A stretch of DNA of 64,000 nt from Escherichia coli (GTDB lineage: Bacteria > Pseudomonadota > Gammaproteobacteria > Enterobacterales > Enterobacteriaceae), in the NCBI RefSeq assembly GCF_017348835.2, contig NZ_CP071375.1. One strand, given 5' to 3'. The translations under genes were made by a program, and so were the position numbers. The notes under the pieces are model-generated. The model was given only the letters and a program-made list of their open reading frames with translations, had not been told where the DNA came from and did not search any database. Positions 46,976 to 47,938 of the stretch are shown piece after piece; the first letter of the stretch is position 1, and the number at the start of each line of letters is the position of its first letter.

Positions 46976-47902
46976 TCAGCATGACGCATTTGAGAATGTT
47001 GAATTTACAATTGCCGACTCAGGCACGGCGGTCAGCGTCCAGTTTTTGACGGCTGACTGAAGGATTTGCTCGACGCTGAAATCCTGCCAGTGTGCTTCTG
47101 CCTGCTGCCCCAGAAATTGAAGTGCCGCGATTAGTACCGGGCGTGGATCGCCTTTCGGCAACGCAGGCGCATGATTCTGCTTGGAAAGTTTAGCGCCTTG
47201 TGGATTAAGCGCCAGCGGCAGATGAATGTAATCTGGCACTTTCCAGCCAAAAAGCTGGTACAGCGAGATTTGCCGCACTGTCGGTTCGATCAAATCTGCC
47301 CCGCGGACAATTTCGCTCACACCCTGGAAGTGATCATCCACCACCACCGCCAGGTTATAGGCAAACAAACCATCACGGCGATGAATAATAAAATCTTCCC
47401 GTGCCAGTTTTTCGTCGGCGTGAATAATGCCTCGCAGCAGGTCAGTAAACTGGGTGACCGGATGCTGCTGGCGGATACGCACTGCGGCGTTGTCTGGTCC
47501 ATGATGCAATTCCCGGCAATGACCGTCGTAAATACCGCCAATGCTTTGAATACGTGCACGCGTGCAGGTGCAGTAATAACTTAGTCCTTGCTCATGTAAC
47601 CAGGCGAGTGCTTCGCGATAGGCGTGGTGACGTTGCGATTGCCAGAGAACATCGCCGTCCCAGTGCAGGCCGTAATGTTCCAGCTGGCGCAGGATAGTTT
47701 CTGCGGCACCGGGAACTTCACGAGGCGGGTCGATATCTTCTATACGTACCAGCCAGCGACCTTGCCGGGCGTGAGCCTGCAAATAGCTGCCAAGCGCAGC
47801 AATCAGAGAACCAAAATGAAGCTCGCCGGAAGGAGAGGGGGCGAAGCGGCCAATATAGTGTGTGTCTGTCATCTCTTTGAACAAAAAATAAGGCGGGAGC
47901 AT
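46976..47902 (-). CDS. gluQ: glutamyl-Q tRNA(Asp) synthetase
   Basis: 308-aa ORF from ATG 47900-47902; class I aaRS HIGH-like motif ([10 protein letters not shown]); alternative ATG at 47870-47872. Confidence 0.85.
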
Positions 47903-47938
47903 TTCCCGCCTGTGGTAAACGTGATGGAACGGCTGTAA

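Follow-up and report, generated by a model that had tools for sequence, protein, structure and literature searches.

The window analysed here, meaning the whole 64-kb stretch of Escherichia coli DNA, carries sfsA, dksA, gluQ and pcnB in that order on its minus strand. The following features were placed around the junction of dksA and gluQ:

48394..47939, minus strand: dksA coding sequence, 151 aa (ORF list, and RefSeq annotation on identical DNA)
47941..47939, minus strand: dksA stop codon, TAA
47891..47911, minus strand: terminator hairpin (folding, comparison, PMC3542578)
47900..47902, minus strand: ATG in the hairpin loop, in frame, opening the longest gluQ ORF (308 aa); not the codon used
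47882..47890, minus strand: terminator U tract, UAUUUUUUG
47887, minus strand: mapped RNA 3' end, equal to MG1655 160097, in the U tract and 5 nt past the 7-bp stem (Term-seq, PMC7815308)
47870..47872, minus strand: true start codon of gluQ, also named gluQ-rs or yadB (N-terminal sequence, RefSeq, PDB chains, orthologue alignment)
46976..47872, minus strand: gluQ coding sequence, 298 aa, tRNA glutamyl-Q(34) synthetase (ORF list, RefSeq, PDB)

In RefSeq, pcnB begins at window 46916 (46914-46916, minus strand), on an ATT (AUU) codon with GAGGTG upstream; a non-canonical AUU start is a known case for pcnB. The mechanical ORF list begins pcnB at a TTG at 46937, the second instance in the window in which the longest ORF is not the annotated gene. 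The stretch that separates sfsA from the dksA start codon holds a terminator-like hairpin, CTGCTATTTATAGCGG and then CCTCATTTTT (window 48449-48464, minus strand). Its 3' end, at about 48442, matches an "orphan" Term-seq 3' end recorded for LB 2.0 at MG1655 160652 (PMC7815308). The hairpin might terminate sfsA transcripts or act as an attenuator within the 5' leader of dksA.

The dksA-gluQ junction itself was matched by a 401-nt query in 5424 of 5426 complete E. coli genomes, with one match at 100% identity. Its hairpin, the loop AUG and the start codon actually used have been known since 2012, when Caballero et al. (BMC Microbiol 12:226; PMC3542578) described the same terminator in Shigella flexneri and located "the first predicted AUG" within the loop, and Term-seq data on the site have been available since 2021 (Adams et al.; PMC7815308).

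We characterized the structure of this element in the window. The RNA AGGCGGGA-AAUGC-UCCCGCCU (47911..47891, minus strand) pairs over 8 bp, six of them G-C, around a 5-nt loop, and begins 27 nt past the dksA stop codon. Its core, GGCGGGA / AAUGC / UCCCGCC at 47910..47892, is a 7-bp stem that the pair A47911-U47891 extends to 8 bp. Folded alone, the hairpin reached -14.5 kcal/mol, a stability that no shuffle out of 200 equalled (z = -4.0); within a 300-nt transcript, pairing probabilities for the six G-C pairs were 0.998-1.0. The U tract UAUUUUUUG (47890..47882) follows directly, with 7 T in the next 8 nt, and the loop ATG (47902..47900) occupies loop positions 2-4, in the frame of gluQ and without an intervening stop. 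The sequence-only reading, which had proposed a hairpin after the dksA stop with an ATG in its loop, was therefore correct on this point. Its 7-bp stem and the coordinates 47892-47910 describe the core, but its 7-4-8 division was miscounted, since the loop has 5 nt and not 4; the position that it called immediately downstream of the stop is close to it, yet 27 nt away.

Both strands of the 64-kb window were scanned under strict terminator criteria: a stem of 7 or more pairs, 6 or more of them G-C, with 6 or more T among the 8 bases that follow it. Three distinct sites were returned, with the dksA-gluQ hairpin recovered among them, compared with 0.25 hits in random sequences. The dksA-gluQ hairpin is not a chance feature, and it has the G+C-rich stem-loop and adjoining U-rich tract of an intrinsic terminator.

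Several other structures were recorded during these scans. The two remaining strict sites lie at 22470-22497 and 15426-15445 (minus strand); one reads TCTGGCGGAGC...GCTCCGCCAGA and then TTTATTT, and the other AGCCGGCC...GGCCGGCT and then CTTTTAC. No plus-strand site was returned under the strict criteria across the 64-kb window, and a bidirectional terminator at dksA-gluQ was rejected because the plus-strand hairpin is followed by TGTGGTAAAC, which holds no T tract. The minimum-energy fold also contained a mini-hairpin of the U tract with AAGAGAUG, which covers the true gluQ start codon. This was rejected as chance: it reached -3.9 kcal/mol (z = -1.3), 21 of 200 shuffles were as stable, and it was absent in Phytobacter and not significant in Citrobacter or Kluyvera. 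A further small hairpin of the minimum-energy fold, GGCU-AAUUAC-AGCC across the dksA stop codon (window 47930-47944, minus strand), has 4 bp only and may be chance.

Published experiments bear directly on what the dksA-gluQ hairpin does. In S. flexneri, RT-PCR across the junction demonstrated that dksA and gluQ-rs are co-transcribed, and a lacZ fusion lacking the dksA promoters stayed at baseline, so that gluQ-rs has no promoter of its own (PMC3542578). The two genes thus form an operon on both counts, co-transcription and a downstream gene lacking its own promoter. The sole promoter-like match that we encountered, at 47881..47852, was dismissed, as it would initiate inside the gluQ ORF and the published fusions show no promoter. 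In the same work, plasmid lacZ fusions responded to the terminator: deletion of the intergenic region with its terminator raised reporter expression 10-fold, and stem-disrupting mutations raised it more than 2-fold (PMC3542578). Our literature search returned no single-copy or in vitro tests of the terminator. Likewise, nothing was found there that connects dksA with RIL-seq or with a 3' UTR role, and the 3'-UTR valve paper names dksA in a reference only.

In E. coli MG1655, Adams et al. (PMC7815308) recorded a very abundant Term-seq 3' end at 160097 (minus strand) in three condition tabs. The offset between MG1655 and window coordinates is 112,210, which was checked by the printed 61-mer (window 47937..47877) and by a K-12-like record, and it places this 3' end at 47887, inside the U tract. 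The Term-seq check named in the sequence-only reading had been published in 2021. Read counts at this 3' end were 3,097,035 in LB 0.4 (OD 0.4) and 254,767 in LB 2.0 (OD 2.0), although these counts are not normalised. DirectRNA-seq coverage at the site was 250 upstream and 62 downstream without bicyclomycin (BCM), and 250 and 72 with BCM, and so did not change with the drug. With a Rho score of 1.16 ("No"), the site does not count among the significant regions of Rho termination; its intrinsic terminator score was 7.47, where values of at least 3.0 suggest intrinsic termination (PMC7815308). Independence from Rho, an in vivo 3' end inside the U tract and the effect of stem disruption, all taken from the literature, are the properties of an intrinsic terminator. 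The claims that the hairpin is the dksA terminator and that gluQ is expressed at a low level, solely by read-through from the dksA promoters, are upheld by the fusions of Caballero et al., with which the data of Adams et al. agree. The fraction of read-through can be put roughly at ~10% from the 10-fold lacZ difference in plasmid fusions and at ~25% from the coverage ratio (62 vs 250) in 800-nt windows.

The position of the gluQ start was a separate matter. Caballero et al. expressed GluQ-RS with a C-terminal tag and the native upstream region, and the N-terminus of this protein was sequenced as T-D-T-Q-Y-I-G-R-F-A-P (PMC3542578), from which it follows that translation begins at the second AUG (47872..47870) and yields the 298-aa protein. 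This AUG lies 30 bases beyond the loop ATG and 18 nt past the 8-bp hairpin. Since the sequenced sample came from T7-driven over-expression on a plasmid, a minor 308-aa form could still be made from the chromosome. In each of the five E. coli records inspected, RefSeq begins gluQRS at window 47872, for a gene of 897 nt and a protein of 298 aa. The structures 1NZJ and 4A91 also have 298 aa and match the long ORF over residues 11-308. For GluRS relatives, the alignment to the long ORF starts no earlier than residue 17-19, while the homology of orthologues begins at residues 1-7 of the 298-aa protein, with an ATG there or a few codons off in nearly all loci. Our search returned no start-site ribosome-profiling data for gluQ.

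A start codon embedded in the hairpin, as the sequence-only reading had it, is contradicted by the N-terminus, by RefSeq, by 1NZJ and 4A91, and by the absence of the loop ATG outside Escherichia. Because the start codon lies outside the hairpin, gluQ translation is not coupled to hairpin unfolding through that codon. Sequestration in the proper sense involves a functional start or Shine-Dalgarno (SD) sequence inside the structure; here the start at 47872 is outside it and the loop ATG is unconserved. The "start codon in a hairpin" is an artefact of choosing the longest ORF. The gene table of PMC7815308 uses the same 308-aa start at the loop ATG, which is why the terminator 3' end is filed there as "internal" to gluQ, at a distance of 15 nt from its start codon.

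We then compared the loop across lineages. Among 76 non-redundant loci, an open in-frame loop ATG was found in E. coli and E. albertii only, and elsewhere the loops read UUU, UCU, GCGAU, UUAGC, UCAC and others. Three further loops containing ATG (in a Pantoea, an Edwardsiella and a Plesiomonas) have no in-frame open gluQ extension. The divergent E. coli-labelled genome AF16 carries the loop AAUUAC with no ATG, and E. fergusonii keeps the terminator with no methionine codon at the loop position (PMC3542578). By our own arithmetic, a 5-nt loop holds an ATG by chance in ~5% of cases, so that one ATG-bearing lineage among dozens is unremarkable. The loop AUG is a lineage-specific coincidence and not the main start.

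The sample behind these comparisons comprised 80 dksA loci, one genome per species, with gluQ next to dksA in 74. Adding three E. coli records and the window gave 78 loci, and 76 remained after two near-identical E. coli records were dropped. A strict terminator scan matched 37 of the 78 loci; it overlooked bulged stems, and A/U pairs at the base of the stem took bases away from the T tract, so a search for the best hairpin was made in its place. Its best hairpin was -14 kcal/mol or lower in 74 of the 76 loci, and the dksA-gluQ spacer was more stable than its shuffles (median z = -3.3; below -2 in 65 of 76). The distance from the hairpin end to the gluQ start had a median of 20 nt and was at most 30 nt in 57 of 76 loci.

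Within the Enterobacteriaceae, the stem core GGCGGG/CCCGCC was invariant in 26 sequences while loops and flanks vary. The pairs flanking the core covary: four changed on both sides, with a score above those of all 500 shuffles and of every slid register. Erwiniaceae, Yersiniaceae, Morganellaceae, Vibrio, Photobacterium and Shewanella carry unrelated G+C-rich stems in the same place, and strong spacer hairpins of -16 to -29 kcal/mol were found in the non-Enterobacteriaceae loci (L025-L072). Of the 76 loci, 37 have a good U tract after the hairpin, with 5 or more T in 8. Another 30, from the Erwiniaceae, Yersiniaceae and Morganellaceae, hold three T or fewer in those 8 nt. Such hairpins may have no canonical terminator function; weak termination, RNA stabilisation and processing are candidate roles for those lacking a U tract.

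The read-through RNA offers gluQ a leader made of the terminator U tract and GUUCAAAGAG. In the 20 nt before the true start (window 47873-47892), the best anti-SD duplex was -1.7 kcal/mol, against -9.2 for dksA, and Caballero et al. had also remarked on the missing SD (PMC3542578). Over the equivalent 20 nt in loci L002-L083, 73 of 76 loci had no SD ahead of gluQ, taking as absence any anti-SD duplex weaker than -4 kcal/mol, and this held across Enterobacterales, Vibrionales and Shewanella. The absence of an SD is conserved over several bacterial orders and not specific to one species. Its probable effect is to lower gluQ translation.

It was also noted that both one-mismatch genomes inspected (L084, L085) change AAAGAG to AACGAG at window 47876 (minus strand), just before the gluQ start, a variant that weakens the sole purine-rich stretch ahead of it.

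Taken together, the element is very probably a leaky Rho-independent terminator inside the dksA-gluQ operon, where the loop AUG is not the main start and gluQ is initiated weakly, with no SD, at 47872. Initiation at the loop AUG (47902), with translation requiring the hairpin to melt or be remodelled, is extremely unlikely by comparison. In its favour, no in-frame ATG of the longest ORF (308 aa) precedes this codon, where the gene table of PMC7815308 also sets the start. An SD-like GGCGGG/GGGA lies just upstream (anti-SD duplex -6.3 kcal/mol), for which Caballero et al. noted "a possible Shine-Dalgarno sequence" (PMC3542578), and the 51-nt region here has an identical copy in 4887 of 5424 E. 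coli genomes, the other 537 not being identical over it. However, that SD-like sequence sits in the stem with a pairing probability of about 1, and the loop ATG is missing from AF16, E. fergusonii and all other genera. At a chance of ~5% per 5-nt loop, one lineage with an ATG among dozens is to be expected. With homology to GluRS and to orthologues beginning at or past the second Met, 298 aa in RefSeq and PDB, and the sequenced N-terminus (PMC3542578) at the second AUG, the loop-AUG model is already largely refuted.

The remaining alternatives concern the terminator itself. In one, read-through is modulated by growth phase, by ppGpp/DksA, by a binding protein or by a small ligand. Caballero et al. 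left a riboswitch-like circuit or a terminator-binding protein possible, and their RT-PCR found a 20-fold increase in stationary phase for RNA across the intergenic region, against a 1.3-fold change for the dksA and gluQ-rs amplicons (PMC3542578). The Term-seq 3' end count was also 12 times lower in LB 2.0 than in LB 0.4, in counts that are not normalised. The "conditional" expression proposed in the sequence-only reading is hinted at by the 20-fold rise only. Against such regulation, the hairpin has a pairing probability of about 1 in context with no competing antiterminator fold, the 27 nt from stop to hairpin are too short for an aptamer, the upstream spacer is not conserved between genera, and the authors' own riboswitch search was negative (PMC3542578). 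Our Rfam search of the region gave no family match, and its one sub-threshold hit, to a snoRNA, is a chance match. With no Rfam family, no competing fold and no conserved spacer, a riboswitch or antiterminator was rejected, and regulated attenuation as a whole is unlikely. Less likely still is a hairpin that chiefly protects or processes the RNA, with the 3' end left by exonuclease trimming and gluQ transcription not really attenuated. Term-seq cannot separate termination from processing, and in the 30 of 76 loci with a hairpin but without a good U tract the conserved role may not be termination. In E. coli, however, 7 of the 8 bases after the stem are T and the 3' end falls among them, the intrinsic terminator score is 7.47 and coverage drops about 4-fold across the site (PMC7815308), and both stem mutations and deletion of the region raise reporter expression (PMC3542578).

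Under the leaky-terminator reading, most dksA transcripts would end in the U tract at window 47887, and a minority of polymerases, perhaps 10-25%, would pass the terminator and be the sole source of gluQ mRNA. As gluQ has no promoter of its own, it would be carried by read-through transcripts alone. On these the hairpin would probably remain folded, upstream of the ribosome-binding region, and translation would start from the second AUG (47872), 18 nt past the hairpin, in an A/U-rich leader without an SD. Expression of gluQ would then be damped twice, by termination and by weak initiation. We infer that read-through is constitutive and not regulated, although the 20-fold stationary-phase rise in intergenic RNA is counter-evidence that fits regulated read-through better.

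That rise, together with a hairpin position and a missing SD conserved in Enterobacterales, Vibrio and Shewanella, makes it conceivable that read-through is actively tuned. Growth phase, a hairpin-binding factor, or ppGpp/DksA acting on RNA polymerase where DksA's own gene is terminated could do so. We give this a small chance. If true, the hairpin ~20 nt upstream and the SD-less start would amount to a selected two-step brake on GluQ-RS, and glutamyl-queuosine on tRNA-Asp would be set according to stress. The practical point is one of annotation, since choosing the longest ORF repeats the misplacement of the gluQ start in the PMC7815308 gene table. The additions to prior work are modest: in most of the 76 loci ~20 nt separate the hairpin from the gluQ start downstream, and the SD is absent in 73 of them. 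With the hairpin position conserved and the SD missing, low GluQ-RS expression looks, on comparative grounds, like a conserved design and not a Shigella quirk.

Among known systems, the S. flexneri dksA/gluQ-rs terminator is the same element, a stem-loop of -14.7 kcal/mol with the first AUG in its "bulge" and the second AUG downstream (PMC3542578). Nothing of substance differs: residue 5 is H in the E. coli window and Q in the sequenced protein, and the AUG spacing of 27 nt given in PMC3542578 corresponds to 30 nt from A to A in the window, or 27 nt between the AUGs. RNA thermometers and translational riboswitches bear a superficial likeness, with an AUG and an SD-like sequence in a stable hairpin. 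In contrast to them, the AUG in the dksA-gluQ hairpin is non-functional, the real start is outside, and there is no alternative fold or RNA family. In rpsU-dnaG-rpoD and recA-recX, a strong upstream gene and a weak downstream gene share one promoter across a Rho-independent terminator. These partial terminators within operons, before dnaG in the first case and with about 10% read-through in the second, are the analogues cited by Caballero et al. (PMC3542578). The genes are different, but the likeness extends to initiation in dnaG, which has an unusual SD and, like gluQ, a poor ribosome-binding site.
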